The notes: generated by a model from the sequence alone, not told the origin. Numbered from the stretch's first letter, positions 9,623-37,945 are shown. The stretch: DNA of 64,000 nt from Anaerolineae bacterium (GCA_049589355.1 JBAWAP010000384.1:2349-66348), one strand, 5' to 3'. Translations and numbers: made by a program.

Positions 9623-9659
9623 AAAGCGTCAGGGAGCTTTCCACGATGCACCCTTTGCG

Positions 9660-10966: not shown

Positions 10967-10977
10967 CCTTTGCTGAT

Positions 10978-11586
10978 TCAAGTTGGAATTGGACACCGAC
11001 CATAGTGCGAGCGGCATGGCAGAGAACTCGCCGCACGACGCAGAAAGACGCGCCGGGTAAGTGGTGGGCTCTTGGACAACTGAGCTTGAGCGCGCTCTGG
11101 TGTGAGGTGATAGACCGCCCCTGGACTGAAAAGCAACACATCATCATGCCACGATAGGTATGGCCGGTGGAAATGTCCGAAAATGATGGCATCCACCTGG
11201 CTGAAGGCTCGCAACACCTGTCGCTGGAAGCCACCCCACCAGAAGCGGCGGCCAGTGAACAGTTCGTTGGAAAGCATGCTGGGCAACTCTCGCCACACTG
11301 ATCGCCGACCGTGAACTAAACCAATCCGTGCCTTTCCTATCTCAATGACAGTCTTCACGGGCAGGTCGAGGGCGTCGTGATCACCCTTGACCGCCACCAC
11401 CGGAGCAAGTAACCTCAACTCGTCCAACACCTCTGAGTTGGTAATGTCGCCAGCGTGCAAGATCAGATCCACATCCTGAAAGAGATGCACAATCCCCTTG
11501 GGCAGCGCAGGCAAAAACTCGGGTACGTGTGTGTCAGCAATCACTCCTATCCTGTAAGCGGCCATCGGTAACTCTTTATGCGCCAC
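10978..11586 (-). CDS. Metallophosphoesterase (YfcE/MJ0936-like)
   Basis: IGVIADTHVP...HAGDI...GHFHRP metal-binding motifs. Confidence 0.8.
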   Translation of the reverse strand: MAHKELPMAAYRIGVIADTHVPEFLPALPKGIVHLFQDVDLILHAGDITNSEVLDELRLLAPVVAVKGDHDALDLPVKTVIEIGKARIGLVHGRRSVWRELPSMLSNELFTGRRFWWGGFQRQVLRAFSQVDAIIFGHFHRPYLSWHDDVLLFSPGAVYHLTPERAQAQLSKSPPLTRRVFLRRAASSLPCRSHYGRCPIPT

Positions 11587-14147: not shown

Positions 14148-14517
14148 CGGCTGTCCAGAACTCGCCTTCCATCATCTCGGCCAGGGCCAGGTAGTGAGTA
14201 TCATAGGCAGCGGGGCGGTCGAAGCGAGCGGCCAGGTCGAAGGCTTTCAAAGAGATGTTGGATGGGTGGAGTAGGCGCACTCCAAGCATAAGGGCCCCGC
14301 GGACGGCCTCTTTGGCCTCCTCCACACTCATTAGGCCCCGCTTCGCTTTTCGCCAGATGGCCGAGGTGATCTCGAAGCAGAAGAGGTAGGGAGCGACGAT
14401 TTCTCGATCCTCATTCAGCCATTTTCCCCACAAGGCCAAAGCGAGGGGGCGATCTGGTTCCGGGGCCACAAGTTTGACGACAATATTAGCATCAACGCAG
14501 ACCGGTGATCTCGGCAT
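14080..14517 (-). CDS. vapC: PIN-domain toxin VapC
   Basis: VDANIVV...CFEITSAIW...YDTHYLALAE acidic PIN residues. Start ATG at 14517 overlaps the antitoxin 3' end. Confidence 0.7.
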   Translation of the reverse strand: MPRSPVCVDANIVVKLVAPEPDRPLALALWGKWLNEDREIVAPYLFCFEITSAIWRKAKRGLMSVEEAKEAVRGALMLGVRLLHPSNISLKAFDLAARFDRPAAYDTHYLALAEMMEGEFWTADERLYNTVRDDFSRIHWLGDYQ

Positions 14518-14758
14518 CCCGCTCCTCCCGCATCTGGCGGATATCCTCGACGCAGCTAGGCATCTCGCCGTATTTCCGTTCGAGTTCATCACCCAAGGCT
14601 CGTACCCGCTCCAGTGCCTCCAGACTTTGTCTCCTCCGTATCTCCCGCTCTGTCGCCTCGGCGATCAATCGTGAACGCTCCCCACTGGGGATCAGCCGCT
14701 TGATCTCTTCCCAGAGCCCACGAGGGAAAACCAGGGAAACCCGTACTGTATCGCTCAT
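14492..14758 (-). CDS. Antitoxin (ribbon-helix-helix/VapB-like)
   Basis: 88 aa immediately upstream of and overlapping the PIN gene; basic N-terminus then helical C-terminus. Confidence 0.5.
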   Translation of the reverse strand: MSDTVRVSLVFPRGLWEEIKRLIPSGERSRLIAEATEREIRRRQSLEALERVRALGDELERKYGEMPSCVEDIRQMREERDAEITGLR

Positions 14759-15538: not shown

Positions 15539-15886
15539 TCAGAGGCCCTGCCTGATCGCATCCAGGGTAGCCCTGGCGGCAGGTACGAAGCCGAAGAAGC
15601 GCTCGATCTTCTCGCAGCCGTAGTCGTCGCAGTAAGCGCAGTTGAGGACACCTCGCTCCATGCCGCAGGCGCGGATGTCGCACTCATACCAGTGGCCGCA
15701 CTTGCGTTCTCCTTCGGTCACGCACCCGTCGCAGATGACCGATTCGACGGTGATGTCGGGCGCGTTGAACTCCTCGCGCCATTGCGCGGCCACTCGCTCC
15801 AGTGCGGCGTGGTCGTCTGCCTGGGTGGCGATGTAGGCCGGGCAGTCGCTGCATACCAGTCCACAGTAAGCGATGATCTTGTCCAT
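15539..15886 (-). CDS. DUF3795 cysteine-rich protein
   Basis: YCGLVCSDCPAY...CDGC...C..C.C...CAYCDDYGCEK. Confidence 0.75.
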   Translation of the reverse strand: MDKIIAYCGLVCSDCPAYIATQADDHAALERVAAQWREEFNAPDITVESVICDGCVTEGERKCGHWYECDIRACGMERGVLNCAYCDDYGCEKIERFFGFVPAARATLDAIRQGL

Positions 15887-15913
15887 TAGATTTCCTCCCT
15901 TTTTTAGTTATTT

Positions 15914-16267
15914 TCACGCCGCTAGGCTGGCGCGGATACCATCCAAGGTGGCGCGGGCGTGGGGCGCCATGCCAAAGAAGCCCTCCAGCTTTTCGCAGGC
16001 GTAGTCGTCGCAGTAGGCACAATTGACGACGCCCCGCTCCATGCCACAAGCGCGAACCTGGCACTCAAAGCAATAGCCACACAATCGCTCGCTATCCGAC
16101 AGGCAACCGTCGCACATGGCGGATTCGATGGTGATGTCAGGATTATTGAATTGTTCCCTCGCTCGTGCGGCCATTCGTTCTAGTGCAGCCAGGTCATTCG
16201 TCTGGGTAGCAATGTATGCCTCGCAGTCGGTGCACACCAAACCACAATAGGCGATCATTTTGTCCAA
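15914..16267 (-). CDS. DUF3795 cysteine-rich protein (tandem paralog of 15539-15886)
   Basis: Near-identical architecture and many identical residues to the downstream paralog. Confidence 0.75.
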   Translation of the reverse strand: MDKMIAYCGLVCTDCEAYIATQTNDLAALERMAARAREQFNNPDITIESAMCDGCLSDSERLCGYCFECQVRACGMERGVVNCAYCDDYACEKLEGFFGMAPHARATLDGIRASLAA

Positions 16268-16452
16268 CAGATTTCCTCCTCTCTTTACTCGTTATGCGGT
16301 CATTGGTGGGCTTGCAAGTATTGTTCGAATTCCTTCATACAGACGAGGCAGCGGTCGAGGGCATTTTCGGACCGCCCACCCCTTTTCAGGAACTTGCGAA
16401 ACCCTTGCGCATCCATGTAGTACCTCCTTCCAATGAAACACCCCCGATTGAT

Positions 16453-19926: not shown

Positions 19927-20535
19927 TCACTTTACGAGGCTCAACGCCGCAGCGATGTCTTCCGCGATCATCCTTCTCTTGCTCTTCTCGATAAAGAAGC
20001 TGGGACCTGCCTGCAGGTAGGATGGGAACGCCCTCTTCTCTTGGAAGAAATATTCCTGCCCTCGGATCTTGTACGTGGACCCGGCGGGAATCACCCTCTC
20101 CTCACCGGCCCTCTTCGCGATGTAGTTAATGGCCTTGATGGCAACGTCGCCCATGAGCATCAGCACCTGCACATCTGGAAACAGGGCCAGTTCTTTCTCC
20201 AGCAGGAATGAACATTCCCTGATGGTGCTCGCCTCGATTCCGTATCCGGTCTTCCCGCATTTTACGGCAGTGGTGAGGTACACACCGAGATCGAGGATAT
20301 CCTGTATAGACGAGACATCCACACCAGCATCGTTGAATGCTTGAACGGTCGTCTGCTGAAACAAGGCCTCCCCTTCCGCATAGTAGTAGTCGCCAGAGTT
20401 CGCGGGTGCAGCTTCCGAGATCATCACGATGGAAATGTCCTCTGGCTTCACATTCACGTCCGGAATGATGTAGCACTCGTGCCTCACATCAGCACACGGA
20501 AAGTCTTTACATTCCACACACTTGCTCACTTGCAT
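19927..20535 (-). CDS. Uracil-DNA glycosylase superfamily protein (divergent, Cys-rich N-terminus)
   Basis: ~200 aa; CVECKDFPC N-terminal Cys cluster and UDG-like core. ATG at 20535 with GGAGG RBS. Confidence 0.45.
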   Translation of the reverse strand: MQVSKCVECKDFPCADVRHECYIIPDVNVKPEDISIVMISEAAPANSGDYYYAEGEALFQQTTVQAFNDAGVDVSSIQDILDLGVYLTTAVKCGKTGYGIEASTIRECSFLLEKELALFPDVQVLMLMGDVAIKAINYIAKRAGEERVIPAGSTYKIRGQEYFFQEKRAFPSYLQAGPSFFIEKSKRRMIAEDIAAALSLVK

Positions 20536-20587
20536 TTTGCCACCTCCTGCCAAATCTAACCCAGGACCTTCCCCTGGACTCTGGCGT

Positions 20588-21220
20588 CTAGGCCCCTTTC
20601 TCAACCGGATGTCTCAAGATCGTCCTTAGCCTCTCCGGCTTGGCCCGCCGAGGATCGCCCAAATAGATCTCATGATGTTTGCCACGAAGCCGATAGCCAT
20701 TCTCCCGAGCAAAGGTCATCATTTTCTCAATGGCTCGTGGCTCTTCAGCGTACGGTCCAAGGTGCATGATTTGCATACAAAGCCCTTCGTGGAAACCCTC
20801 AAATCGGATCTTAGATAAGGCTGGGTTTTCTCTCTTCTCTTTGACTTGTTGCAGGGCTTCCTGGTACATCTCCTCAGTGATGTGCTCTGGCTGCAGAATC
20901 ATCATCGTCCATTTCCAATCTTCTTTCTTGTTGAAATCGAACTCACCCGACTCCGTCCACCACAGCCCTTCCAGTGCCATCACTGTGTAATCAATAGGAT
21001 TCGTTTCTCGCAGTTTCGACATGAACTTCAACGTGTACGACACGCCGTACAGCGCACCCATTGCGCCCTGAAACTCCTGAGACGCTTCCGGTGTCTCACC
21101 GAGTTGGATCCCGCCGTCAACCATGACGAATTTGAACTTCGGCACGTCCACAATCTCCACCTTCTTTGCGGAGGGTGCGTAGAGGTACTTCAATTCCTTC
21201 TTTAGATCGATCTTGTTCAT
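20588..21220 (-). CDS. GyrI-like small-molecule-binding domain protein
   Basis: 210 aa, beta-alpha-beta-beta duplicated pattern. Family resemblance to YtkR7/C10R6-type cyclopropane hydrolases. Confidence 0.4.
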   Translation of the reverse strand: MNKIDLKKELKYLYAPSAKKVEIVDVPKFKFVMVDGGIQLGETPEASQEFQGAMGALYGVSYTLKFMSKLRETNPIDYTVMALEGLWWTESGEFDFNKKEDWKWTMMILQPEHITEEMYQEALQQVKEKRENPALSKIRFEGFHEGLCMQIMHLGPYAEEPRAIEKMMTFARENGYRLRGKHHEIYLGDPRRAKPERLRTILRHPVEKGA

Positions 21221-22644: not shown

Positions 22645-23667
22645 TCAAAAATTCAAGGTGTAAGACGATTCCCGCGCTGCGTGCGCAACGGCTAGGTTAA
22701 TCCGTTTTTGCACGCGCAGCACCAGGAAGGTGACCCAGGGCGAGGGGTTCTTCTTGTCGGCGAAGGACCAGCCCTTCCAGGCGCGGTACATCGAGCCCGC
22801 GGTGTAGTGGCCCTCCCCGTCCGCCTGAGCGGTGATCGTCTCCACCATCTCCCGGAAGCGAGGGTCAGTGTGAACGAACAGGAAACGGCTGAGCATGTCC
22901 ACCACGTGCAAGATGTCGTACCAGACGAACGGGTACTTGAGCTTGCGAAAGTCGGTACCGATGCCGAACATGTAGATCTTGCGCTCGATCCGGTGTTCCC
23001 AGTGCCAGAGGAGCATCTCGGCGCCAGTGCGTGTGGCCGGGCCGTCGAGCAATTCTGGAACCTGGGCCAGCGCCTTGAGCGCATAGACGTTGACGATGGG
23101 GCAGGGATCTTCTCTGCGCCCCGGCCCCTTGAACTTGCCCAGCTCCGGCGCGCCGACGCATCGCCAGCCGTTGCCGTCTACCAGGCCAATCAGGTGATCC
23201 ACCGCTCGCTGCACGCGCGGGTCGTTGCCCAGCCCCATCGCCAGCAAGGCGTAGAGCAACGTCGGTGCGTCGCACAGCATCCACGTCCATAAGTCCTCGC
23301 CTGTCCCACCAAAGGCCTCGGGGATGTTCACCAGGCTCTGGAAAGCCCCCTCCGGCGACTGGTGGGTCATCACAGCCTTGATGCCGGCGGACATACCCGG
23401 ATCATCCGCCCGTACGCCGAAGTCGGCCAGGGTGCTGAACTTGTAGAGGGGGTGGTTGGCGTCGTTGTGCCGCTGGAGGGCATAGCCGGGCCAGGTGGCG
23501 GCCTCGGCGATGAGCCCCTGCACTGGTGGATGGGCCAGCATCTCGGCGTGGGCAGTTTGCACTTCGGGGTCGTCTTCAGGCCGGTCGAGCAGATCCACCA
23601 GCGTGCGATACCGAGTCCAGGGCTCATCCGATTCCAGCAGCCATTGAATCAGATCAGTTTTTATCAT
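22645..23667 (-). CDS. Prenyltransferase/squalene-oxidase (QW) repeat alpha-toroid protein, paralog 1
   Basis: N-terminal DLIQWLLESDEPWTRYRTL motif; QxxxGxW-like repeats (QSPEGAF, VDGNGWRC, ADGEGHYT). Confidence 0.5.
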   Translation of the reverse strand: MIKTDLIQWLLESDEPWTRYRTLVDLLDRPEDDPEVQTAHAEMLAHPPVQGLIAEAATWPGYALQRHNDANHPLYKFSTLADFGVRADDPGMSAGIKAVMTHQSPEGAFQSLVNIPEAFGGTGEDLWTWMLCDAPTLLYALLAMGLGNDPRVQRAVDHLIGLVDGNGWRCVGAPELGKFKGPGRREDPCPIVNVYALKALAQVPELLDGPATRTGAEMLLWHWEHRIERKIYMFGIGTDFRKLKYPFVWYDILHVVDMLSRFLFVHTDPRFREMVETITAQADGEGHYTAGSMYRAWKGWSFADKKNPSPWVTFLVLRVQKRINLAVAHAARESSYTLNF

Positions 23668-23712
23668 TTCACTGCTCGAATATCCTGTGAGCTTGCTTCA
23701 ACAATGTCTTTG

Positions 23713-24702
23713 TCATTCTTTGCTTAAAACCCGCATGTCCGCCTTGGAAAAATATCTAAATGCCCTTTCGCCGTACTCTTCGTCAAGCCTAGCCACATAG
23801 CTCCGAAGCGCTTCTAGTGCGAATACGCCGCCAGCATCATCACCAAAGGACATCTCTATGAACCACGCCCCTTTCCTCAACGCTCCCGTTGGAGTCAACC
23901 ATCCCTCTTCCGCTAGCGGGATGTGTTCACAGCGCACGCCGTATTCCTCCAGAGCCTTACAGTAGTCCTTCACCCTTGAATAGCTCGAGTGTATCTTCTG
24001 CGCCAAATAAGTCTCGCCGTCAATTACAAGGTCTGAACCACCTTCCTCCTTGGGTTGGCCGAAGCGTCCGAACGCCCACAATAGCTTAAGTAAGTGCCGT
24101 CTCCTTTTCTCGAGCACTGCCTGCCGGGCGTATGAGACATCGTTGACGACTTCTATCGCTGCTATGAGCCGATGGAGGGCTTCAAGCGCCGAGGTCTCTT
24201 CCTTGGAGAAGGGCAGGTCGTCGGGGAAGTCTACGAGTTCAGGCCTGGCGGAAACCTTGGTCATCTCTACGATGTCTTTCGGGCCAAGGGAAGCGCGTAT
24301 TTTATGCAGATGCTTAATGCCTTCGTAGGGCTCTATGAAAGTGAGGTAGTCTTCTTCTGGTATCGGGGTTCCTAGTCGGGCGGCGGTTCTCTCCCTCGCA
24401 TCCGCCGAGAGAGAAACCCTTGGCACATCTTCACAGGGGTAGCCAGAGCAATGGACGCAGGTCTTGACGCCGTTTCTTACCGCGCATCTTCGCACGTAGC
24501 AGTTCTGATAGCGCACCGGATTTTCATCGTCCGGCGCCTGGCAGCCATCGCAGAGGCGAAGCTTGGAAGGACTTAGTCGGAAGCCCAGGTATTTCGCCCA
24601 TCCGTCGCTGCATCGCTGTCTGTCCCCGTCGGTCTGAAGGGTTTCTTTGTAAGATGGGCAGCGGCCGCAGTTGCAACCGCATTTGGAAAACAAGTCTTTC
24701 AT
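23713..24702 (-). CDS. DUF3795 N-terminal Cys-rich domain fused to an uncharacterised ~200-aa C-terminal domain
   Basis: CGCNCGRCPSY...CDGC...C..C.C...CVHCSGYPCED, then a non-Cys domain. Confidence 0.55.
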   Translation of the reverse strand: MKDLFSKCGCNCGRCPSYKETLQTDGDRQRCSDGWAKYLGFRLSPSKLRLCDGCQAPDDENPVRYQNCYVRRCAVRNGVKTCVHCSGYPCEDVPRVSLSADARERTAARLGTPIPEEDYLTFIEPYEGIKHLHKIRASLGPKDIVEMTKVSARPELVDFPDDLPFSKEETSALEALHRLIAAIEVVNDVSYARQAVLEKRRRHLLKLLWAFGRFGQPKEEGGSDLVIDGETYLAQKIHSSYSRVKDYCKALEEYGVRCEHIPLAEEGWLTPTGALRKGAWFIEMSFGDDAGGVFALEALRSYVARLDEEYGERAFRYFSKADMRVLSKE

Positions 24703-24763
24703 TAGGATTCTCCTTGAGATCAGGATTGATATTGAACAGCCCGGGATGCAGAGATTCCTCTCA

Positions 24764-25771
24764 TCAGAAATTCACCGTTCGATACTCCGCCTGGCAGGGA
24801 TAACCGGCTGCGATGTCCAGTTGCCGTTCACCCGGCCGCCCCACCACCGACCACAGTGTCCCGAACTTGCGGTCGGGAAAGTGCGCCCCGTGGGAGCATA
24901 CCAAACCCTCGTGGTCGCGTAGGGCCTGTTTCACAGCATCCTTATCCACCAACCCATTGCCCCCAAGCAACTCACGGAGACGGTTGTAGCGGGGATGAGA
25001 GTCCATGGGCACGAAGGTTTCTTTACCAGCCCATTCCGGACAGACGGCGTGGTTGGTCATAATCAGTAGTCCGTCTTCTGGGTAACGCACTGCGATTCCC
25101 TCCACGGTCGGCTCCACAACCGCGGCTTTGCCGGACTGATCTGCCAGGAGGTAGGTCCAACTGCCCGCATGAGGCACCTTTTGGATCAGCTCCAGCCCCT
25201 CGTCCACCGTCGCACAGCGGTCGAGGACCAGGCGGGCGATAAGCCAGAAGGTCAGACCTGGCTGCAGGCCCGGAAGGAAAAGAGCAGCAATCGCCACAAA
25301 GAGGCCGGCTTCGTTGAGTCCATCGTCGCGCCCCACCCAGATATCGCAATCGCCCAGGCTAGCGTAGCGCCCGTCGGGATAGGTGCGATAGGTTGTTGCC
25401 GGCTCCTCCGAGATGTCGTGGAAATAGTCGTAGTTCCGGCCGACGATGGGCCAACCATCGGCCGTCCGCTCCGGCGTTACCGCAAGCACGCTGCAACCAG
25501 ATACCTCTGCAGAATCGAAGGGGGCGGTCAGAGTCAGGGTCATCAAGGCACTGTAGTCCACCTCAGCCGCCTCCGCCAGTCCCCGCATCTCGTCCAACAA
25601 CTCTGGTGCATACTGCCCCACAATTTGCTCACACTGCTTGGCAAAATGGAGCATTTTGGGGTCTGGCGGGGGTAGGGTCATGCCCTTCAAGGGATAACCA
25701 TGCTGTCGTCCTATCTGTTCATAACTACCACGGAGTTCAACCTGATGCATCGGATAAGCCTCCTTTCTCAA
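24764..25771 (-). CDS. C45 family Ntn-hydrolase (acyl-CoA:6-aminopenicillanic acid acyltransferase-like)
   Basis: MHQVELRGSYEQIGRQHG N-terminus and putative autoprocessing Gly-Cys (SGCSVLAV). Confidence 0.65.
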   Translation of the reverse strand: MRKEAYPMHQVELRGSYEQIGRQHGYPLKGMTLPPPDPKMLHFAKQCEQIVGQYAPELLDEMRGLAEAAEVDYSALMTLTLTAPFDSAEVSGCSVLAVTPERTADGWPIVGRNYDYFHDISEEPATTYRTYPDGRYASLGDCDIWVGRDDGLNEAGLFVAIAALFLPGLQPGLTFWLIARLVLDRCATVDEGLELIQKVPHAGSWTYLLADQSGKAAVVEPTVEGIAVRYPEDGLLIMTNHAVCPEWAGKETFVPMDSHPRYNRLRELLGGNGLVDKDAVKQALRDHEGLVCSHGAHFPDRKFGTLWSVVGRPGERQLDIAAGYPCQAEYRTVNF

Positions 25772-26724
25772 AGCTCATTGACAATTCTCCGCAGTGCCTC
25801 TAATCCGTCTGCCTCAGCATCTCGGGCTGTTCGCAGGGCGTCTATCGCCGTGCGAATTTGCGCTTGGTCCTTGACGTGCTCAGGCTTCATGCCGTGAAAC
25901 GGAAACGTGTTGGCGACAGTCTGGAGGTTCTCGGACACCACCTGATACTGATCGAGCGCCTCATCAAACAAGGCTGCTGCCTGTCCATCCAGGCGTTCCT
26001 TGGCTTCTTGCAGGAACAAGACGGCATAGCCGCGACATTCCTGCCAGACCGCAGCATTGTAGGCCACGCCAAACCCGTCGGCCGTACCGCTTTCCAGGGC
26101 GCGGATCCAGGTGTCGTACCCGGCCAATCCAGCTTTGTACTTGGGGAATATCCACTTTGCCGGACTGGTAGCGTGCTCCAGGGCAAATGTCAACGCTTCT
26201 TTGACGGTCTGAACGTCATCGGCCGCTTGCCCCGGCTTTAGGCTGTACATCTCCAGCACGCCGATTTCGGTGTCCCCCAACTCTTGCCACGGTTTGGGGC
26301 CTTTCCCCTCATCGCAACCTGGCCCGGAAAAGTAGTATCCGTTGTCATCGTAGCCGTATACGACGTAGTATTCGGCAATGTCCAACTCCCAGCCATAGCA
26401 GGGAAGACCTTGGTCAATCGCCGCTTTGACATGCTCCCAGACCAGTTTCTGCTTTTCGGCAAAACCATCGGCTGACTTCATGCCGAACACACTATCAATC
26501 TCATAGCCAATGTTCTTGCCGAGCTTGAACAGCATCTCCATGTTCCACGCCGTTGGCCCGCTGGGGCAAACCACCTCGTGCACGTTGATGACAAACGCAT
26601 GGCCCGTCGAACCGAACAACCAGGCGTCGGAACCGTCCAGATTCAGATAGTCCAGACACCCTTTGATACAGCCAAGGTGCGACACCCAGCGCGGCACCCA
26701 TCTCAGATTCTCTAGCTTTTTCAT
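25768..26724 (-). CDS. Hypothetical protein (possible BtrH_N/DUF4872-like papain-fold domain)
   Basis: 318 aa; 4-nt overlap with the C45 gene suggests co-translation. Family call tentative. Confidence 0.3.
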   Translation of the reverse strand: MKKLENLRWVPRWVSHLGCIKGCLDYLNLDGSDAWLFGSTGHAFVINVHEVVCPSGPTAWNMEMLFKLGKNIGYEIDSVFGMKSADGFAEKQKLVWEHVKAAIDQGLPCYGWELDIAEYYVVYGYDDNGYYFSGPGCDEGKGPKPWQELGDTEIGVLEMYSLKPGQAADDVQTVKEALTFALEHATSPAKWIFPKYKAGLAGYDTWIRALESGTADGFGVAYNAAVWQECRGYAVLFLQEAKERLDGQAAALFDEALDQYQVVSENLQTVANTFPFHGMKPEHVKDQAQIRTAIDALRTARDAEADGLEALRRIVNEL

Positions 26725-26742
26725 TTGGTCACTCCTTTCTCG

Positions 26743-27252
26743 TTATAGGTACAAGATGATCCTGCGACATTCTGTTTTTCTATGGCCGTGCCACTCCCCT
26801 GGCAGGCAACCTCTTCTCAAAGAGAATCTGACCACGGGGGTCTGACCCCACCTCGACAAAACCCACCTTCTTGTAGAAATGGCGCGTGCGACGGTTCCAG
26901 GCTGGCGTATCGAGGGCCATCTCTTGGCCAGGGGATACTCTTCCCACAGGAACTCCATGGCCTGGGTGCCGGCCCCTTGATTCTGATAGTCGGGATCAAC
27001 GAAGATACGCCCCAGCTCGTATTCGCGAGGTCCCTTGCGAAGGACAATGAACCCACCAACGATCTGATCGCCGACCAAGATCTTGTAATAGTCGCCGATG
27101 TGCATCATTTTTCTTTGCCACTGCTCCGATTCGTAGCCAGGAGGGCCACCCAATCCTGGGGCGCCACAGTGGATGTCGCTGTGGAACGCACGCTCGGAGA
27201 TACGAGCCAACGTGGCGGCATCCGTGGGCCTGGCCTTCTCGAAGCGAATCAT
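26743..27252 (-). CDS. GNAT family N-acetyltransferase
   Basis: RIFVDPDYQNQGAGTQAMEF acetyl-CoA motif. Confidence 0.75.
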   Translation of the reverse strand: MIRFEKARPTDAATLARISERAFHSDIHCGAPGLGGPPGYESEQWQRKMMHIGDYYKILVGDQIVGGFIVLRKGPREYELGRIFVDPDYQNQGAGTQAMEFLWEEYPLAKRWPSIRQPGTVARAISTRRWVLSRWGQTPVVRFSLRRGCLPGEWHGHRKTECRRIILYL

Positions 27253-27626
27253 CCGTTTTTCTCCTCCCAGAGTCCGAACATATTGCCGCTGGGATCGGTG
27301 AAACAGGCCCTATAAGCAGGGCCTTGTGGAGTCTTAGGGGTGACGACCTTTCCCCCGAGTTCTGTCACTCTCTTCAGAATAGTCTCGATGTCCTCCACTA
27401 CAATGTAGACGACTACACCAAGGGGTTCACCCTTGGGCCTTAACCATATCCCACCTCGTCGAAGGTTCTGTAGCCGTGGTTCACCAGCCGTATCAAAAAT
27501 CCAGACACCGAACCCTTCTGCAGTCTCCTTTTCGATTATCTTCCAGCCAAACAGGTTTTGATAGAAGCTTGCGGTTTTCTCTATATCTCTTGTCCTTATC
27601 TCAATCCAATCAAACGCATTAGACAT
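27249..27626 (-). CDS. VOC/glyoxalase-fold protein
   Basis: ~125 aa beta-alpha-beta-beta-beta modules (FDWIEIRTRD..., VVYIVVEDIE). Confidence 0.75.
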   Translation of the reverse strand: MSNAFDWIEIRTRDIEKTASFYQNLFGWKIIEKETAEGFGVWIFDTAGEPRLQNLRRGGIWLRPKGEPLGVVVYIVVEDIETILKRVTELGGKVVTPKTPQGPAYRACFTDPSGNMFGLWEEKNG

Positions 27627-27659
27627 CGCAAAACCTCCTGTTCGTTTCTGTTGTTTCAC

Positions 27660-30659
<3,000 letters not shown>

Positions 30660-31425
30660 GTCCCTCAGCCTGAACTTGGGCGGAAATCAGTTTTAGCCGC
30701 GTTGGCCACTCGTCAGGCTGTAACGCTGGCGCGTCAAACAGGGCTGGCGTCTCGACCCCGCCGATTACAGCGGGAAAGAACTCGATGCTGATTTCGTCTA
30801 CAAGCCCAGCACGCAAGAGCGCGCCGTTCAACTTGCCCCCAGCCGTTGACACCACACATGTAACACCCAACTGGTACCCCAGCTTCTCCAGGGCAGCGTG
30901 AAGATCAACTCGCTCTTCCCCTGCCACCAGGTAGGGAATCTTTTCGCGCTGGAGGTAGGCCAGATACTCGGGTGGAGTATGGTGGGCTACCAGGACCAGC
31001 AGGTGCCACCCTTCCCATCCCTCAAATTCTTTGTAAAACCATCGTACGCGTCCTCGACTATCCACAGCCGTGAACCACCCCTGATGTCCCGGACGATGGA
31101 CGACATCGTGTGGCAAAAAGTCCTGATACAGTGACTGAGGATCATCGTCAACGGGCGGGAGAGGCTCGGGCTCCGCGTCATTCAAAACAAAAGAGCCGCT
31201 GCCTTCAAGAAAGACTTGTGGTTTGTAGGTAAGCTTGAGCCGTTCGTATACATCGTCGCTTGATCCCGCGACAGCCTGCCATCTCTCGTCCCCGTATAGC
31301 AGAAGGACATCGGGTGCAAGCGTTATCCTCCCATCTACTGAAGCAACTGCATGGACTACCACTCGTGGTCTGTCCATAGACACTTTCCTCCTCTGTTCAA
31401 AATTGTGCCAGGTATCTTGAATTTA

Positions 31426-32388
31426 TCATCCAACGGATGCGTACTGCGCTGCGATGGCGCGGGCCCGTTCGCTCACCAGGCAACGTAATTCCTCCGGCTC
31501 CAGCACCACGGCGTGGGGGCCATAACTGAACGCCAGCCGGGCCGGCCACTCCAGGTCTAACGCGGCGAAGGTGACGATCACCGAGCCGTCGGGCTGCTCG
31601 TCCACCGTGTCCCAGAAGGCACGGTCATCGAGCGCCAGGAGCGCCGCCTCTGGGGCGAAGCACATGCGGACTTGCACCTGTGGCTGTGCCTCTGGCTCCG
31701 CAGCCAGGTACTCCTGGATGTCGAAATCGCCTGGCACCTGGAAGATCTGGTTGAGCAGTGTCAGTTCGATGATGCGATCCACGCGGAAGGTACGCACGGC
31801 CTCGCGCAGGTGGCAGTGGCCGATGACGTACCACCAGCCCCAGCGGTGGATCAGCGCATAGGGATCGAAATCTCGCTGCAGGGGTTCTGACTGCCCACGG
31901 CTCCGGTAGGCCACCGTGACTCGTCGCCGCTCACGGGTCGCGCGCCGCAGTTTCTCCAGCAGCGGTACCAGCGGCGTGAAGTCGGCGCGGTGCATACCGG
32001 TCGCCCACAGTGTCCGACGCGCCCAGGCCACTTCGTGCCGCTGTTCGTCGGGGAGCACGTTAACCAGCTTGGCCAGCGCGCCTTGCGCCGCCTCACGGTA
32101 CATCTGGCCCCAAATCTCTTCCACCAGGCTGGTGCCCAGATAGACGGCGACGGCCTCCTCGGGGGTGAAAACAAGCGGGGGCATCTTGTAGCCACGCACT
32201 AACGAGAAGCCGCCGTAGGGGCCGCGCTCGGAGTAAACCGGGATGCCCATCTCGTCCAGCATCATGATGTAGCGGTGCAAGGTGCGCACCGAGATACCCA
32301 ATTCCTCCGCCAGTGCAGCCGCTTTCTGGCTGGGTCGCCGCTGCAATAGCATGATCAGTGAGATCAGTCTGGTAGCAGTGTTCAACAT
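31426..32388 (-). CDS. WYL-domain transcriptional regulator (HTH-WYL-WCX, YafY/PafBC/DriD-like)
   Basis: N-terminal HTH (SVRTLHRYI), central WYL (HRWGWWYVIGHCHLREAVRTFRVDRI), C-terminal WCX-like region. Confidence 0.8.
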   Translation of the reverse strand: MLNTATRLISLIMLLQRRPSQKAAALAEELGISVRTLHRYIMMLDEMGIPVYSERGPYGGFSLVRGYKMPPLVFTPEEAVAVYLGTSLVEEIWGQMYREAAQGALAKLVNVLPDEQRHEVAWARRTLWATGMHRADFTPLVPLLEKLRRATRERRRVTVAYRSRGQSEPLQRDFDPYALIHRWGWWYVIGHCHLREAVRTFRVDRIIELTLLNQIFQVPGDFDIQEYLAAEPEAQPQVQVRMCFAPEAALLALDDRAFWDTVDEQPDGSVIVTFAALDLEWPARLAFSYGPHAVVLEPEELRCLVSERARAIAAQYASVG

Positions 32389-32497
32389 GATGCTCTCCCT
32401 CGATCGTCCGATGGACGGGGTACGACAATATTCTACACCAGGTTTATGACAAAAGCTGGCATAATTGTAGTGGAGTTTGAGGAAAAATCAAATGGAT

Positions 32498-32941
32498 TTA
32501 GCCAGGAAGAGGGACTCCACAGGCGCGGCAGGTCTCGCTATAGATGTCCACCGGTTTGCGGCAAGCAGGGCAGCGCCAGCGAGCCTCCTGCTCAACCAGC
32601 CAGGCATCGAGGCCGACCTCGGCCAGGCGGCGCAGGTTGGAGAGAGGGATGTCGCGGCGGTCGGCGCTGAAGGCGGCCAGTTCCTTGCAGGGAAAGTCCA
32701 TGCACTCATAGCAGAAGGTGATGCCCTGGTCCTGCGTGCAGGTCTTGAATCGGCAGTCCGGAGTCCAGAGGCAGTCAAAGGGGCCACGACAGCCCTCGCA
32801 GCGGATGTCCTCCGGCTGGCAGTGGAAGGCCTGGCGGGCGGCCCGTTCCAGCCGTTCGGTGTCCCTGTCTTTGTACATCCGGTAGATGCCGCAGGCCCCG
32901 CAGTAGAGACCGCAGGCGCTGGCTAATGTAGTGTCAGTCAT
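32498..32941 (-). CDS. DUF3795 cysteine-rich protein
   Basis: CGLYCGACGIY...CEGC...C..C..C...CYECMDFPCKEL. ATG at 32941 forms ATGA overlap with the stop of the upstream toroid gene. Confidence 0.75.
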   Translation of the reverse strand: MTDTTLASACGLYCGACGIYRMYKDRDTERLERAARQAFHCQPEDIRCEGCRGPFDCLWTPDCRFKTCTQDQGITFCYECMDFPCKELAAFSADRRDIPLSNLRRLAEVGLDAWLVEQEARWRCPACRKPVDIYSETCRACGVPLPG

Positions 32942-33837
32942 TTCACCTCTTCCCCGAATTGTTTGAGCACGTGCAAGGCTTTGAGTGTGATCCACTTGCT
33001 CGGTTGCCCATTGCGCTCGATGCGCACGGCGGTGGAGCCGCCCTCCTTGAACCAGCGACCATCGTCCTGCTGTTTCTTCACGACGTGCTGCACCAGTGTC
33101 CAAAACCGTGGGTCGGCGGCGTAGCCGCAGGCGGCCAGCGCCTCCAGCGCGTCCAGCAGGTCGGACTGAAAGTACCACGGGAAGCCGAATCGCAGCCAGC
33201 AGGCTTCCTCACCCTCGAAATCGAAGTCGTGGGAGAGGAGTGCTTCGGCTGTACGGGCTATCGCGCCGCGGACGTCCCAACCTTTAGGGGCGGCGGCAAA
33301 GGCCCACAGCGCTTTGACTGCCAGCCAGTGGCAGGGGTGCTGCTTCTGGTACCAACAGATGAGGCCATCGTCCTGCTCCAGCCGCTCAATCATCGCTCTC
33401 CAGCCTTCATCCACACGGGGATCGTCCCCGTAGCCGAAATGGGCGAGGAAGCGCAGGCAGTTGGCAGTGTAGCAGGGCACAATGCACACCGGCCGGCGCA
33501 TCGGGAGCCAGGGCTTGCTCAGCACGAACTCGCAGCCTCGGTGAGTGCGCTCGTCGGGCGGGACGCCTAAACGGGAAAGGATGAGGAGTTGTCCTGATGC
33601 GCGTTTGATCCCGGTTGCCCTTTCCGGCGTATCCCACCAGCCAGTGGGATCCTGGCGGGCGAAGATGGCCTGCACGTCCTTCGAGCCGGGGATAGCCGCG
33701 CGTGCCTCGCTCACTTCGGGGCTGCCGGTGGGCCGTTCAAGGATGTCGGTGAGCGTGAAGTAGCGCACCGAGGAATTATCTAGTTCGAGAAGCCAATCGG
33801 TTGGATCTGCCTTTAAGAGGTCTTTCCAATTCGCCAT
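32938..33837 (-). CDS. Prenyltransferase/QW-repeat alpha-toroid protein, paralog 2
   Basis: DLLKADPTDWLLELDNSSVRYFTL N-terminus; QDPTGWWD, QDDGLICWY, QQDDGRWFKEG repeats. Confidence 0.5.
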   Translation of the reverse strand: MANWKDLLKADPTDWLLELDNSSVRYFTLTDILERPTGSPEVSEARAAIPGSKDVQAIFARQDPTGWWDTPERATGIKRASGQLLILSRLGVPPDERTHRGCEFVLSKPWLPMRRPVCIVPCYTANCLRFLAHFGYGDDPRVDEGWRAMIERLEQDDGLICWYQKQHPCHWLAVKALWAFAAAPKGWDVRGAIARTAEALLSHDFDFEGEEACWLRFGFPWYFQSDLLDALEALAACGYAADPRFWTLVQHVVKKQQDDGRWFKEGGSTAVRIERNGQPSKWITLKALHVLKQFGEEVK

Positions 33838-33871
33838 GTTTCTCCTCTCGATTTGGGAGGTCAGGCCAACA

Positions 33872-34882
33872 TCATCCCGATTCCGCCGGCAACCAGTGCA
33901 GTCCCTCGCCCTGGGCGGCGAGCGCCAAGCCCCACCCGAACGGCTCGCTCACCCGCAGCACGGCGGTAAGACAGTGCGTGCCAGACGCTAACACCTGCCG
34001 GAGGGCTTGCATCCCCAACTCTACGTACCCGCGTGCCGCGCGGTCCGCAAAGCCTTGGAAAGTGTTCTCCCCACTGAAGATAACCTGCCCGTCCAACTCC
34101 AGGGTAAGAGCATCACTGAAGCCAAACTCGAATGTCATTGCCCCTCCCTCAGGCGTCTCGAAACGTCGGGTCAGACGCACTTCGCTCAACGAGATTGGCA
34201 GGTAGCGGTTCAGGTTGATCACACCATTCGGTTCGCAGGTCACTACGCCGTAACCCTCCACGAACCAGGCTCTGACAGTGCCTTCGCCAGCGCTGGGCAT
34301 CTCTCCGCGTGGGATATCCAGCCTATCACAGGTTGAGACTCGCAGGTCGCAAAAGTAGGCCGGGCGATAGGTCCACAGCCCAAAAAGCCCAGCCGCGATT
34401 GGATGAGCCAGCTTCTCCATGATCAACGGCGGCTGCCCATCTACCGAAACAGCGGCTCGGCCGCCACAAAAATCCACCTTCAGTCGGAACCAGTGCCCGG
34501 TCGGCACCTGCGTGGCGCGTTGGTAGCTCGGGCCATGATACACCTGCCAGGTGTTCGATCCATGGAAGACCGGGTCATACTGCAGCGCATCCCACTGGCC
34601 ACTGACGTGAGGTACGGCGTAAGCCAGCTCAAAGTTGAGTACATCGGCGACACGGAAAGCGACACCCGGATACGCCGGCCCATCAGCGCCAATCAGCATC
34701 TCTATGCTGGCGTCCGTCATCCGGTGGCCGGGGATCAGGGCCAAACCGTCCTCCAACCGCAGCGCCTCGCGCCCCTGCCAGGTGACGACCTCAGCCCGCG
34801 CCGCGTGGATTTCCAGGTCGGGAATGTTGGTAAGGCTGTGTTCCAGGAGAGTGTCCATCTCGAATGACTCCTTGCGTTTCAC
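33872..34882 (-). CDS. Hypothetical protein (possible tandem concanavalin/LamG-like jelly-roll domains)
   Basis: 336 aa, beta-rich, no recognised catalytic motif. Confidence 0.3.
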   Translation of the reverse strand: MKRKESFEMDTLLEHSLTNIPDLEIHAARAEVVTWQGREALRLEDGLALIPGHRMTDASIEMLIGADGPAYPGVAFRVADVLNFELAYAVPHVSGQWDALQYDPVFHGSNTWQVYHGPSYQRATQVPTGHWFRLKVDFCGGRAAVSVDGQPPLIMEKLAHPIAAGLFGLWTYRPAYFCDLRVSTCDRLDIPRGEMPSAGEGTVRAWFVEGYGVVTCEPNGVINLNRYLPISLSEVRLTRRFETPEGGAMTFEFGFSDALTLELDGQVIFSGENTFQGFADRAARGYVELGMQALRQVLASGTHCLTAVLRVSEPFGWGLALAAQGEGLHWLPAESG

Positions 34883-34918
34883 TCTTTATCTTACAACACC
34901 GCTTGAGCCTTCCGTGGC

Positions 34919-35848
34919 TCAGGCATCCGCGGCCTTGATCGCGTACAGCGCCTGCCACGTGACCCATTTACTGGGTCGGCGACGCGGTTCCAGTGGGGTC
35001 CACATACGGCTACCGTAGGGATTAGCACCGTTCCAGCGACCGTCGTCACGGCGTCGGGTCTCCAGCCACTCTAGCGCCTTGCGAAAAGCGGGTTTTTCGT
35101 TCACGCGCCCCAGGTCGGTCAGGGCGCGCAGGGCGAAGAGCACGTCAGCCTGGTAAAAGAGCGGAAAGTTGAGCCGGTCCCACAACTTGTGGCGTGGGCC
35201 GCTGCTGGGATAGTTCCCCTCGCAGAGTTCAAAACGGCCCAGGAAGCAGACACCGCTCGCAACCGCCTCTTGGACAGCACCACTGCGCTCGCCGCTGGGG
35301 ATATGCCCGAAACCCCATAATGCCCGCACCACGCCCCAGGCGCAGGGCAGGTCTCCGTTGATGTTGCAACGCCACTCCCCCGGCGTGCCTGCGCGGGCCA
35401 GTTCTGCCTCGAACTCCCCCACCCGTTCATCCTGTCCGTGACCGAGGGCGTGCAGGTAACCGATAAGGTTGCCGTGGAAGCAGGGCCAGACAGTGGAGCG
35501 GTCCTCACCGTACACCCTGTCAATCATCCGATGGCAGGCAGCGGCGATACGTTCGTCCTGCCCATCGGCGGCGAGTTCGGCCAGCAGGAGCAATTGCCAA
35601 TGAGTCGAGGTATACTTGTAAGTGTAATAACCCCGCTCACCTTCCCAGCGTCCATCGCCGGCATAGTGGGAGAGAATCTCGACCGCCGGCCCTCGTTCCA
35701 GGATCGCCCGACGCATCTCGATCACTTCCGCATCTCCCTCGGTTCGGTCGAGCAACTTGACCAACGTCCAGTAGCGAACCGAGGGGTTCTCTGGCTCCAG
35801 CAGCCATTCCGTCGGGTCGGCTTTGAGTCTACTTTTCCAGTTTCTCAT
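34919..35848 (-). CDS. Prenyltransferase/QW-repeat alpha-toroid protein, paralog 3
   Basis: RLKADPTEWLLEPENPSVRYWTL N-terminus; AGDGRWEGE, RRDDGRWNGANP repeats. Confidence 0.5.
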   Translation of the reverse strand: MRNWKSRLKADPTEWLLEPENPSVRYWTLVKLLDRTEGDAEVIEMRRAILERGPAVEILSHYAGDGRWEGERGYYTYKYTSTHWQLLLLAELAADGQDERIAAACHRMIDRVYGEDRSTVWPCFHGNLIGYLHALGHGQDERVGEFEAELARAGTPGEWRCNINGDLPCAWGVVRALWGFGHIPSGERSGAVQEAVASGVCFLGRFELCEGNYPSSGPRHKLWDRLNFPLFYQADVLFALRALTDLGRVNEKPAFRKALEWLETRRRDDGRWNGANPYGSRMWTPLEPRRRPSKWVTWQALYAIKAADA

Positions 35849-35868: not shown

Positions 35869-36489
35869 CTATCGCACTCCAAGAATTTCTCTCGCCACCT
35901 CCAACGTTCGATCTGCCAGAAACAGCAGTCTCCTTTGGATCTCCTCCTCGTTAATCAGGCCGCCAAAGAGGTTCTCTGTCGTGAAGCCAGCGTTATTGAT
36001 GACCTCGAAACCGGCCAGCTTTCTCCCCATACACTTCGCATCGTCGGACACTAAGCCTGGCGTCCATTGTGCACCATCTGACCAGTGAGGGGCGGCCAGG
36101 ACCACGGCGCTGACGACAGAGCGTTTTAGTTTCTCCACCGGCGCCTGATGGGAGAAAGCTTGCGCTCTCTGAGAAAAGGCTATCCACAGAGCGGGTGGCA
36201 GGCCGCCATAATTCGGTATGAAGAGTAGCAAGATATCCGCCTGCTAGCACTTCTCCCAGATCATTCGTACATCGTCTTCAATCGGGCAGGCTTCATCTGC
36301 TCTGCGCTGTGGATCGAAGCGAGCCACACACTCATACGAGCAGCGCTGGCAGGGGGTGATTTGGCAGTCATAGAAGTTGATCAACTCCCCCTCTACGCGC
36401 TGCTGTTTGAGCCGCTCCAGCATAAACTCGGCGAAGTCATAGCAATTGCCTCGCTCTCTGGCGCTGACTACCAAGGCCAGGGCTTTCAT
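35869..36489 (-). pseudogene. Flavodoxin-like/NADPH-dependent FMN reductase-like gene interrupted by an in-frame TAG
   Basis: ORFs 36244-36489 and 35869-36231 are in the same frame, separated only by TAG (WEKC*QADILLLFIPNYGG). Confidence 0.45.
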
Positions 36490-37445
36490 CGCCTCCTCCC
36501 TCTCCCCGGGTTTGGAATGTAACGCAGGGCCACTTCGGCGGCTTGTGCTCGCTGCTCATCCTGTAGCCAGCCCTCCAGAACCGGCCGCACGGCCTCAGGC
36601 TGGCGCTGGCCCAGATAGTGGAGTGCAGAAGCGGCGGCTCGCCAGACAAAGCGCCGCTCGTCAGCCGCCAACTGGCCGAGGATTTCGAGTGCCTCCTGCA
36701 AATGTCGAGTTCCCCCGAAGCTACGAAAGGCCATGGCCACATTCCACCGCACCTCTTCTCTGGGGTCATCGGCCCAGCGACGAAGGCGGGCCAGAGTGGG
36801 CCGCGGATGGCACCTCAAGAGCCCATCGCCGATGGCATAGGGACCCAGATTCTTGCGTACGTACTCCTCGCGGTCGGCGAGTAGCGACTCCACCAGGTTG
36901 AGGAGGGCCTCGGCCCACTCTTCTCTCCGCTCGTTGCCCGCCTTCCGCACGGCGATGGTCACACCTCGCCGCACGTTGGCAGAAGGATGCCGCGTCCAGG
37001 ACCAGAGAACGCGGTAGAAGACGTCGAAGTGGGCTACGAGGAGGCTGCCCAGCGTACTATGGGCAGCCTCGCGGACCCACCAGTCCTCGTCGTCGGCGAG
37101 ACGCAGAAGCCATGCCTGAACCTCGGCAGCCCGCAAGGGCCAGTAGTGACGAAGCAAAGGGGCTGCGACGGCTCTCGCCGCTGGCTCCGGCCGCTCGGCC
37201 AGACGGCAGGTCCAATCGTAGAGCTCTTCCGTCCCAGGACCGAGGGCCTCCTCGATAGTCACCATGGCCTGGTAGCCAGTCTTGCCCCACTTGGTGGTCA
37301 TCAGGGTAGCAACCAGGCCCTCCTCGTCATCGGCTTCGAGAGCGCGTTGCGCAGCCTGAGCGTCGAACTGGCCCTTGGACGAACTTGCAAGCCCAGGTGT
37401 GCGGGTTGTTTCCTGGTGTTGCGGCAACCGGTTGGCCAACGACAT
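36486..37445 (-). CDS. DNA alkylation repair protein (AlkD/AlkC-like HEAT-like-repeat glycosylase family)
   Basis: WWVREAAHSTLG, NVRRGVTIAV, EVRWNVAMAF motifs typical of the DNA_alkylation HLR family. Confidence 0.65.
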   Translation of the reverse strand: MSLANRLPQHQETTRTPGLASSSKGQFDAQAAQRALEADDEEGLVATLMTTKWGKTGYQAMVTIEEALGPGTEELYDWTCRLAERPEPAARAVAAPLLRHYWPLRAAEVQAWLLRLADDEDWWVREAAHSTLGSLLVAHFDVFYRVLWSWTRHPSANVRRGVTIAVRKAGNERREEWAEALLNLVESLLADREEYVRKNLGPYAIGDGLLRCHPRPTLARLRRWADDPREEVRWNVAMAFRSFGGTRHLQEALEILGQLAADERRFVWRAAASALHYLGQRQPEAVRPVLEGWLQDEQRAQAAEVALRYIPNPGRGRRR

Positions 37446-37465: not shown

Positions 37466-37507
37466 GAACGAATGTTCGACATCCACATTATACCAGAACA
37501 TCTGTTC
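37466..37507. promoter_or_regulatory. Two Cheo-type LexA (SOS) boxes GAAC-N4-GTTC
   Basis: AGAACGAATGTTCG (37465-37478) and AGAACATCTGTTCG (37495-37508), positioned over the spacer and +1 of the promoter below. Confidence 0.6.
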
Positions 37508-37515
37508 GTTGTCAA
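37487..37515 (-). promoter_or_regulatory. Consensus sigma-70 promoter (TTGACA-17-TATAAT) driving the AlkD-like gene and downstream minus-strand genes
   Basis: Minus-strand reading cTTGACAacgaacagatgttctggTATAATg, ~45 nt upstream of the ATG at 37445. Confidence 0.6.
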
Positions 37516-37737: not shown

Positions 37738-37812
37738 GCGGGTGTGACGCAGGGGTAGCGTATCTGCTTCCCAAGCAGAGTGTCGAGGGTTCGAATCCCT
37801 TCACCCGCTCCA
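37738..37812 (+). tRNA. tRNA-Gly (anticodon CCC)
   Basis: GCGGGTG acceptor stem, anticodon stem TCTGC/GCAGA with loop TTCCCAA, T-loop GGTTCGAATCC, 3' CACCCGC-T-CCA. Confidence 0.9.
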
Positions 37813-37945
37813 GAAAAACGGCCTCTCGGATACGAATTCCGGGAGGCTGTGTTTTCTAGAGCAGCACGCCTAGCGCTGAAGCACTGGGCTGAAAGAGCAA
37901 AGCCCTGCGGGCTGAAATTCAGCCCTCGAAGAGGGCCTTGCCCTT

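Follow-up and report, generated by a model that had tools for sequence, protein, structure and literature searches.

In a 64-kb stretch of a metagenome-assembled genome (MAG) of an Anaerolineae bacterium (GCA_049589355.1, JBAWAP010000384.1:2349-66348), hereafter called the window, three genes encode the small paralogous proteins TorA, TorB and TorC, members of a divergent and unannotated family of alpha/alpha-toroids. The main new result concerns the genomic context and regulation of these genes: a promoter cassette with two LexA-type boxes stands before runs of toroid and DUF3795 genes, both in the window and in other contigs. Because of this promoter, the DUF3795 partners and the cysteines predicted at the mouth of the barrel, the three proteins probably belong to the bacterial response to DNA-damaging chemicals, as a component not described before. 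The fold itself is known. In the libraries searched, we found no description of the family, of its putative Cys3-Asp centre, of the DUF3795 partner or of the SOS-type control.

A LexA-type promoter cassette upstream of toroid and DUF3795 genes

The putative SOS promoter of the window lies about 40 bp upstream of a gene for an AlkD-like HEAT-repeat protein (Table 1). Its -35 element, TTGACA (37515-37510, minus strand), and its extended -10 element, TGGTATAAT, which ends at 37487, match the sigma-70 consensus at 12 of 12 positions, with the TG. One LexA-type box, CGAACAGATGTTCT, has its core (37496-37507) inside the spacer, and a second, CGAACATTCGTTCT (core 37466-37477), follows just downstream of the -10 element; the whole double-box promoter reads TTGACAACGAACAGATGTTCTGGTATAATGTGGATGTCGAACATTCGTTCT. 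In Firmicutes and Actinobacteria, LexA binds GAAC-N4-GTTC, and variants have been reported for Chloroflexi (PMC4951493). Three such sites occur in the window against 0.84 expected, and two of the three belong to this promoter. Elsewhere in the window, boxes with one mismatch all fall inside called open reading frames (ORFs), and no LexA-type box belonging to TorA itself was found there. The third exact site (50315-50326) is located inside ORF 50132-50578 and is probably a chance occurrence.

Behind the promoter follows a co-directional run of genes encoding the AlkD-like HEAT protein, an FMN_red-like protein, TorC, a 336-aa protein, TorB and DUF3795S, a short DUF3795 protein. Since no terminator-like site was detected on the minus strand between 37445 and 32498, this run probably forms a single SOS-controlled transcription unit. 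Its part comprising TorC, the 336-aa protein, TorB and DUF3795 is conserved in a contig that encodes a close TorC ortholog (L007).

Searching the fetched loci (1.8 Mb in total) retrieved the cassette, of about 60 nt, from nine loci, which represent seven distinct contigs besides the window. In six of these seven contigs a toroid gene lies downstream of the cassette and in the same direction. The cassette directly precedes TorC in L007 (104 bp) and TorA in L114 (63 bp), where a DUF3795 gene comes next. The cassette of L006 (same contig as L115) is followed by uvrA, TorA and two DUF3795 genes, and that of L004 by a uvrA fragment, a glyoxalase gene, TorA and two DUF3795 genes. A C45 hydrolase gene, two DUF3795 genes, TorA and another DUF3795 gene follow it in L099; in L103 (near-identical to L104) it stands upstream of a co-directional toroid gene, and in L155 it precedes a DUF3795 gene located just after TorA. 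The sequence motif suggests that toroid/DUF3795 runs would be repressed by LexA and induced by damage, together with uvrA in some contigs and with the AlkD-like gene in the window.

A different double arrangement of GAAC-N4-GTTC sites was observed in L012 (9604-9643), about 70 bp upstream of a 294-aa ORF and about 700 bp downstream of a TorC ortholog. The N-terminus of this ORF looks MerR-like by eye, and the site may be a further SOS-type target.

The toroid family and its fold

A preliminary description of this DNA had proposed three paralogous ORFs for small toroid proteins. All three are present where it placed them, on the minus strand and with 299-340 aa each, and the NCBI entries for them hold the same sequences, each annotated by PGAP as 'hypothetical protein'. 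Their paralogy is borne out by BLASTP, which gave 32% identity between TorB and TorC (E 2e-38), 24% between TorA and TorC (E 8e-14) and 25% between TorA and TorB (E 9e-14); the family hidden Markov model (HMM) detected only these three copies in the window. The N-terminal motif that they were said to share exists, but its spacer had been given as seven residues, and the actual form is WLLE-x5-[VT]RY-x-TL. Repeated QxxDGxW elements had also been described. The strict form occurs only once (TorB 256-262), whereas degenerate QW elements are found elsewhere (HYAGDGRW and RRRDDGRW in TorC, HQSPEGAF in TorA) and still align with the QW repeats of squalene-hopene cyclase (SHC) in the profile alignment. 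None of the three proteins reaches a Pfam or NCBIfam threshold: alone, they score below the Pfam gathering thresholds, and TorC gives a weak match to SQHop_cyclase_C (E 1e-3). They are mildly acidic (pI 5.8-6.7), no signal peptide was detected in any of them, and Pfam and NCBIfam scans revealed no DNA-binding domain.

The proposed toroid fold is confirmed by the AlphaFold 2 model of TorC (predicted local distance difference test score, pLDDT, 92.1), an (alpha/alpha)6 toroid of about 12 helices. Foldseek retrieved only toroids as structural matches, with class II terpene cyclases as the best. A family profile was built from 125 sequences, almost all of which are representatives of clusters formed at 50% identity in the source library, and searched against PDB. 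SHC was the best match (E 1.4e-16); the others were the diterpene cyclase Rv3377c (9e-11), drimenyl-diphosphate synthases (about 2e-7), MstE and lanosterol synthase, as well as a weak match to the beta-subunit of Rab geranylgeranyltransferase (RabGGT-beta; 4.6e-3). Taken individually at E<0.01, 47 of the 125 members matched PF13243, 20 matched PF13249 and seven matched PF00432. Given the matches to SHC and other cyclases and those to PF13243, the family is a divergent branch of the terpenoid-cyclase/prenyltransferase superfamily, from which it has derived as soluble, single-domain (alpha/alpha)6 toroids.

A search with the family profile across 1.84 billion representatives retrieved 3,978 clusters at 50% identity with E<=1e-3, 1,723 with E<=1e-10 and 298 with E<=1e-30, and nearly all family representatives are single-domain proteins of 300-360 aa. 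The best 80 genome loci come almost entirely from Chloroflexota MAGs (Anaerolineae, Limnocylindria, Ardenticatenales, Caldilineaceae and Thermoflexia). The family is large, unannotated and essentially restricted to Chloroflexota; it has no name, Pfam model or solved structure, and it is tied to a second uncharacterised family, DUF3795. One homologue of 455 aa (P0241) carries a GNAT acetyltransferase domain N-terminal to a TorC-type toroid.

Conserved cysteine and aspartate residues

Conserved residues of the kind expected in an active site, which had been anticipated among Cys, His and Asp, are present in the 125-sequence alignment: three Cys and one Asp are conserved, but no His. In TorC numbering, C123 is conserved in 98% of the sequences, C161 in 95%, C169 in 90% and D235 in 90%, and the C-C-C-D combination is intact in most family members. 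TorA has only three Cys in its 340 residues, and they are exactly those conserved in the family. Other family-specific conserved residues are W15-L16-L17, P22, R25, P229, W295 and T297, while W68, G136, D140, R142, G270 and W272 are conserved structural residues of the repeat type. Since no column of the alignment exceeds 35% His, neither the Asp-Cys-His zinc site of prenyltransferases nor the Cys-Cys-His site of LanC is kept. The toroids also gave no match to the LANC_like Pfam signature, and the CGEQ thioester motif of TED domains (alpha2-macroglobulin/complement) was not found in them.

According to DSSP, helices of the TorC model start at residues 122, 170 and 236, and strands 160-161 and 167-168 are paired. 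This puts C123, C169 and D235 at the N-terminal ends of three alternate helices, taken here as the inner ones, and C161 and C169 would occupy the two ends of one beta-hairpin, paired across its strands. HMMER aligns C123 with position 376 of the SHC motif D374-V-D376-D377. Two SHC sequences with the D376C mutation scored 63.7 and 63.6 bits, compared with 52.9 for the wild type, and C123 was then aligned with C376. D235 was aligned with SHC D374 in another register ('FP-x2-Y-x2-D235' against 'FDNVYYPD374'). The SHC alignments thus place the conserved residues at the helix-start position used for catalysis in this superfamily. A profile of the C-terminal half was compared with PDB in search of a prenyltransferase zinc-ligand alignment for C169 and D235, and it retrieved only cyclase QW-repeat matches. 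The secondary structure of the model and the register of the helix repeats suggest that the four residues form one Cys3-Asp centre where the central cavity opens, the place at which the superfamily has catalytic acids or zinc. Such a centre might bind metal (Zn2+ or an Fe-S cluster) or present free thiolates.

Relation to known toroid enzymes

Despite their similarity in profile and fold to SHC, drimenyl-diphosphate synthase, MstE and RabGGT-beta, it is very improbable that the toroids are bona fide terpene cyclases or prenyltransferase beta-subunits that make or transfer isoprenoids, because they are single-domain proteins that lack both a DxDD motif and any conserved His. Class II terpene cyclases (SHC, Rv3377c, drimenyl-diphosphate synthase and MstE; PF13243/PF13249) share with Tor the (alpha/alpha)6 toroid, QW-like repeats and a conserved residue at the helix N-terminal position that bears the catalytic Asp in SHC. 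However, they consist of two domains (about 500-730 aa), whereas Tor proteins have one domain of about 300 aa and lack the beta-gamma architecture, and they have DxDD where Tor has a Cys at the aligned position. Neither D.DD nor D.D[DE] occurs in TorA, TorB or TorC, and D.DD is found anywhere in the sequence of only 11 of the 125 family members. Unlike these cyclases, Tor has an SOS-type promoter and a DUF3795 partner, and no isoprenoid genes nearby. Among the genes scanned (about 6.2-38.8 kb), no domain match was obtained to a prenyl-diphosphate synthase or to a prenyltransferase alpha-subunit (PPTA/TPR), which is the partner of the beta-subunits. The low Pfam scores of the window proteins also count against such an assignment.

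Prenyltransferases and LanC, the latter with seven hairpins, perform zinc-thiolate alkyl transfer. Tor differs from prenyltransferase beta-subunits and from LanC/LanCL in having no conserved His, and its residue set would be Cys3-Asp. Linalool dehydratase/isomerase is a cofactor-free (alpha/alpha)6 enzyme, periplasmic and oligomeric, and linalool dehydratase uses Cys acid/base chemistry. It has no damage-response context, and no sequence similarity to Tor was detected. The literature on toroid proteins in repair contexts yielded nothing useful.

DUF3795 proteins as partners of the toroids

DUF3795 genes had been described beside all three toroid genes. They do adjoin TorA and TorB, but not TorC, which is flanked by the 336-aa protein, without an assigned family, and by the FMN_red-like gene with an in-frame stop, beyond which lies the AlkD-like HEAT gene. 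The TGA of TorB and the ATG of DUF3795S, directly downstream, overlap as ATGA, with GAGG just 5' of it. TorA is directly preceded by a DUF3795 protein of 329 aa, with a gap of 45 bp. PF12675 gives these two toroid-adjacent proteins 56.8 and 45.2 bits, with 22.6 as the gathering cut-off. DUF3795 has 10 invariant Cys in about 85 residues, starting with CX3CX2C, to which DUF3795S adds a C-terminal four-Cys zinc ribbon; no relative of the DUF3795 fold was found in PDB. The long protein consists of an N-terminal DUF3795 and a C-terminal part of about 230 aa without an assigned family, and had no PDB match. Its orthologs (63-95% identity) are encoded upstream of TorA in L087, L091, L109, L120, L123 and L138.

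Linkage to HMM-defined DUF3795 was counted in 80 metagenome loci with TorA orthologs. DUF3795 was present in 22 of the 45 TorA-type loci having 4 kb or more of flanking sequence, and within 1 kb in 16 of 44 loci with both flanks. All 27 copies located at most 300 bp from a toroid gene were co-directional with it. At more than 3 kb from toroid genes, on other contigs, the background density of DUF3795 is 0.04-0.22 per 10 kb. In one protein (P0380), DUF3795 and a toroid are fused. Translational coupling, same-strand adjacency and this fusion show, at the genomic level, that the toroids work with DUF3795 proteins in the lineage of the window.

With the locus-derived HMM, seven DUF3795 genes were detected in the window, far above that background. 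Another DUF3795 homologue (P0460) is fused to the HhH domain PF14520. In a UDG-superfamily protein (19927-20604, minus strand), the N-terminal Cys motif, CVECKDFPC, bears a weak resemblance to the C-terminal region of the DUF3795 HMM (E 1.5e-3), a slight indication of kinship between the Cys motif of DUF3795 and the UDG metal site. The literature on DUF3795 held nothing informative beyond incidental mention.

Possible function and alternative explanations

The mechanism that we favour is speculative and argued by analogy, and an even chance would somewhat overstate it: a toroid/DUF3795 module under SOS control, whose Cys or metal centre acts on bulky genotoxic electrophiles. With the genes under LexA repression and induced by DNA damage, the hydrophobic, Trp-rich cavity of a cytoplasmic toroid would receive a genotoxin that is bulky and electrophilic, or an adduct that has been released. 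A thiolate or metal-thiolate centre would then neutralise the electrophile by S-alkylation, thiol conjugation or hydration, in analogy either to the zinc-thiolate chemistry of prenyltransferases and LanC or to the Cys acid/base chemistry of linalool dehydratase. DUF3795 would be the obligatory partner of the toroid, and several toroid paralogs would cover different compounds. The preliminary description had suggested binders or detoxifiers of a genotoxic metabolite, a suggestion that is consistent with our results and now better motivated by the LexA-box promoter and the repair island. Damage-controlled detoxifying enzymes have a precedent in the DinB-like genes that the adjacent WYL regulator SiwR activates under genotoxic stress (PMC10693628). 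DinB/YfiT-fold thiol transferases and GyrI-like hydrolases share the island with Tor (three DinB-fold genes and one GyrI-like gene); their folds are unrelated to that of Tor, and the analogy is one of role only.

Several points weigh against the favoured explanation. The boxes are assigned to LexA only by analogy (PMC4951493), because no lexA was found in the window or in the 1.8 Mb of loci by tblastn with an approximate B. subtilis LexA query. Adjacency to DUF3795 inside the window is weak evidence, given seven copies in 64 kb. C169 is replaced by Ser or Gly in about 10% of family members. The residue equivalences with SHC are positional only, because the repeated fold aligns C123 and D235 in different registers, and we infer the clustering of C123, C161, C169 and D235 from the model. 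No finding identifies a ligand, and a genotoxin as target of the toroid is speculative. Further out in the family, DUF3795 was found within 1 kb of none of 60 distant TorC-type genes, and the same was true of 12 close TorC relatives; none of 65 distant TorC-type homologues had a LexA-type box upstream. The 121 proteins immediately neighbouring 61 distant TorC-type genes included no recurrent family, the commonest being TldD/PmbA, MFS and GNAT (4 of 121 each). The association with DUF3795 and repair genes is therefore not valid for the whole family, whose distant TorC-type members stand alone, and the damage link may be a lineage-specific recruitment. These distant loci would also suit a general role unrelated to damage, for instance binding or modification of isoprenoid, lipid or envelope compounds, with some paralogs that simply landed in a fluid SOS/xenobiotic island of one Anaerolineae lineage; the shuffled gene order of the island agrees with such a history. 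We nevertheless give this explanation a low probability: the ATGA coupling, the fusion protein and the 27 co-directional DUF3795 copies are hard to obtain by hitch-hiking alone, a near-identical SOS cassette stands directly before toroid genes in differing arrangements, and the scanned neighbours include no isoprenoid or lipid genes.

There are two further explanations. The module might act on DNA, DUF3795 (with Zn or Fe-S) being a DNA-binding or lesion-sensing subunit that brings the toroid to bulky adducts; the cavity would accommodate, process or shield these as an accessory to UvrA- or glycosylase-dependent repair. The order SOS box, uvrA, TorA, DUF3795, DUF3795, with gaps of 12-89 bp, points in this direction, as do the AlkD-like protein at the start of the run in the window, the three DUF3795 genes directly after an AlkZ-like glycosylase gene, the zinc ribbon of DUF3795S, the HhH fusion of its homologue and the weak resemblance of the UDG-family N-terminus to the DUF3795 Cys motif. 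We still consider it rather unlikely, since the pI values of the toroids and of DUF3795S (5.5-6.7) lie in the acidic to neutral range, scans of the toroids detected no DNA-binding domain, and what they conserve is Cys, where hydrolysis of an N-glycosidic bond would call for carboxylates; to our knowledge, no toroid of this superfamily binds DNA. Alternatively, toroid and DUF3795 might form an Fe-S reductase pair, in which Cys3-Asp, with its one non-Cys ligand, coordinates a [4Fe-4S] cluster, and electrons come from DUF3795 as a ferredoxin-like donor, so that a redox-active or electrophilic toxin is inactivated in anaerobes such as the Anaerolineae hosts. Three Cys and a carboxylate are a known [4Fe-4S] ligand set, for example in Pyrococcus ferredoxin and B. 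subtilis Fnr. The density of invariant Cys in DUF3795, together with its lack of a PDB relative, fits a structure held by metal, and an Fe-S aldo/keto reductase gene and the FMN_red-like gene lie in the same island. However, the Cys spacing is not diagnostic, the DUF3795 Cys could equally bind zinc, and no toroid of this superfamily is known to us to carry an Fe-S cluster. We consider the reductase pair distinctly unlikely.

If the Cys centre of the favoured electrophile-neutralising module does perform thiolate chemistry on genotoxins, this would put the terpene-cyclase fold to a new use and give resistance-guided mining for DNA-damaging natural products a further marker. A broader formulation is possible but doubtful: toroid and DUF3795 would make up an unrecognised SOS-induced defence, in which a metal- or thiolate-dependent toroid enzyme and a Cys-rich partner of new fold disarm bulky alkylating genotoxins or process DNA adducts. 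If true, a new enzyme class would stand beside the AlkD, AlkZ, GyrI-like and UvrA defences against genotoxins. The placement of the LexA-type promoter, in some contigs beside canonical uvrA, offers a concrete entry point to the function of toroids and DUF3795, and also to the little-studied DNA-damage response of Chloroflexota.

Neighbouring genes and the repair/detoxification island

Table 1. Toroid genes, DUF3795 genes, the putative promoter and selected neighbours in the 64-kb window
Feature	Position	Strand	Remarks
Five further DUF3795 paralogs	8597-9016, 9020-9628, 9663-10223, 15542-15907, 15917-16291	minus	Locus-derived HMM
TorA, toroid paralog	22645-23667	minus	340 aa; MGA9351328.1; Cys C132, C170, C189
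Long DUF3795 (329 aa)	23713-24702 (HMM list 23716-24771)	minus	PF12675 E 1.4e-11; upstream of TorA
Canonical uvrA	27660-30659	minus	NF001503, 1431.7 bits against cut-off 1147
HTH-WYL-WCX transcription factor (PafBC/DriD/SiwR type)	31426-32388	minus	PF13280 3e-23, PF25583 5e-16, PF08279 2e-11
DUF3795S (147 aa)	32498-32941 (HMM list 32501-33208)	minus	ATG overlaps TorB stop
TorB, toroid paralog	32938-33837	minus	299 aa; MGA9351338.1; C122, C161, C169 and D226
Conserved 336-aa acidic protein	33872-34882	minus	Between TorC and TorB
TorC, single-domain (alpha/alpha)6 toroid	34919-35848	minus	309 aa; MGA9351340.1; C123, C161, C169, D235
FMN_red-like flavodoxin-fold gene	35869-36489	minus	PF03358 on N-terminal 81 aa; TAG at 36244-36246
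HEAT-repeat/DNA_alkylation (AlkD-like)	36486-37445	minus	PF08713 E 5e-12, PF13646 E 3.6e-15; first gene after promoter
Putative SOS promoter	37466-37515	minus	-35, extended -10, two LexA-type boxes

The toroid genes lie in an island of some 30 kb, which extends from about position 6 kb to 37.5 kb of the window and whose called genes are all on the minus strand. Besides the seven DUF3795 genes, it contains genes for MFS, GNAT and SDR proteins, an Fe-S aldo/keto reductase, HhH-GPD and UDG proteins, an AlkZ-like glycosylase, three DinB-fold proteins, a GyrI-like protein, a C45 hydrolase, glyoxalase/Ble, UvrA, RibD_C, the WYL regulator and the AlkD-like protein. The repair genes reported near the toroids are thus present (uvrA, AlkD-like, HhH-GPD, UDG and AlkZ-like). 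It is established that AlkZ/YcaQ, AlkD/YtkR2 and GyrI-like proteins protect against alkylating natural products (PMC9040887, PMC7367128, PMC8626424, PMC9854587), and several families of the island are known to confer self-resistance to genotoxins (PMC9040887, PMC8626424, PMC9854587). WYL regulators switch on damage responses, among them DinB-like genes next to them (PMC10693628). Other contigs have the genes of the island around TorA as well, in highly shuffled order. PADLOC defence-system models matched none of the toroids, DUF3795 proteins or two unassigned proteins; the generic WYL and ATPase models matched only the WYL regulator and UvrA.

TorA of the window stands at the end of a run of genes in one direction, which starts with the WYL regulator gene and contains uvrA, and in L006/L115 a uvrA ortholog directly precedes TorA behind the SOS cassette. 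The label 'UvrA2' for the ABC protein of the window was dropped, since its score with the NCBIfam equivalog NF001503 is that of a canonical UvrA.

An ortholog of the AlkD-like gene is directly upstream of TorC in L008, where the FMN_red-like gene is absent from this position. The translation of the FMN_red-like gene has a single internal in-frame stop; this TAG could reflect a pseudogene, an assembly error or read-through. The 336-aa protein retrieved no Pfam, NCBIfam, PADLOC or PDB sequence match, and its position is kept in L007 and L008 (87-89% identity). A second acidic protein, of 318 aa (25768-26724, minus strand), likewise had no sequence match in Pfam, NCBIfam, PADLOC or PDB, and its position before the C45 hydrolase gene is kept in L087 and L096.

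The gene for the AlkZ-like DNA glycosylase (7362-8651, minus strand; PF06224, E 4e-68) has an MFS transporter gene before it and three DUF3795 genes directly after it, and extends the genotoxin-defence island to about the 6-kb position of the window. At the upstream edge, just beyond the SOS promoter, there are a tRNA-Gly(CCC) gene (37738-37812, plus strand) and a terminator-like site (37818-37850); the tRNA gene may mark an island boundary or integration site. GNAT genes are located at 26743-27252 and 10424-11017. Radical SAM and PIN-domain proteins are also encoded inside the island (13263-14592, minus strand), and the 211 bp upstream of the PIN gene hold a TATAAT-like start and a short ORF, possibly forming a toxin-antitoxin pair with it. 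A DarT/Macro pair, resembling the DNA ADP-ribosylation toxin-antitoxin system DarTG, is encoded together with CinA in L004 (3987-5851) and L006 (3293-5157), a few kb upstream of the SOS-box uvrA/TorA/DUF3795 run, with Fpg and NUDIX genes downstream.

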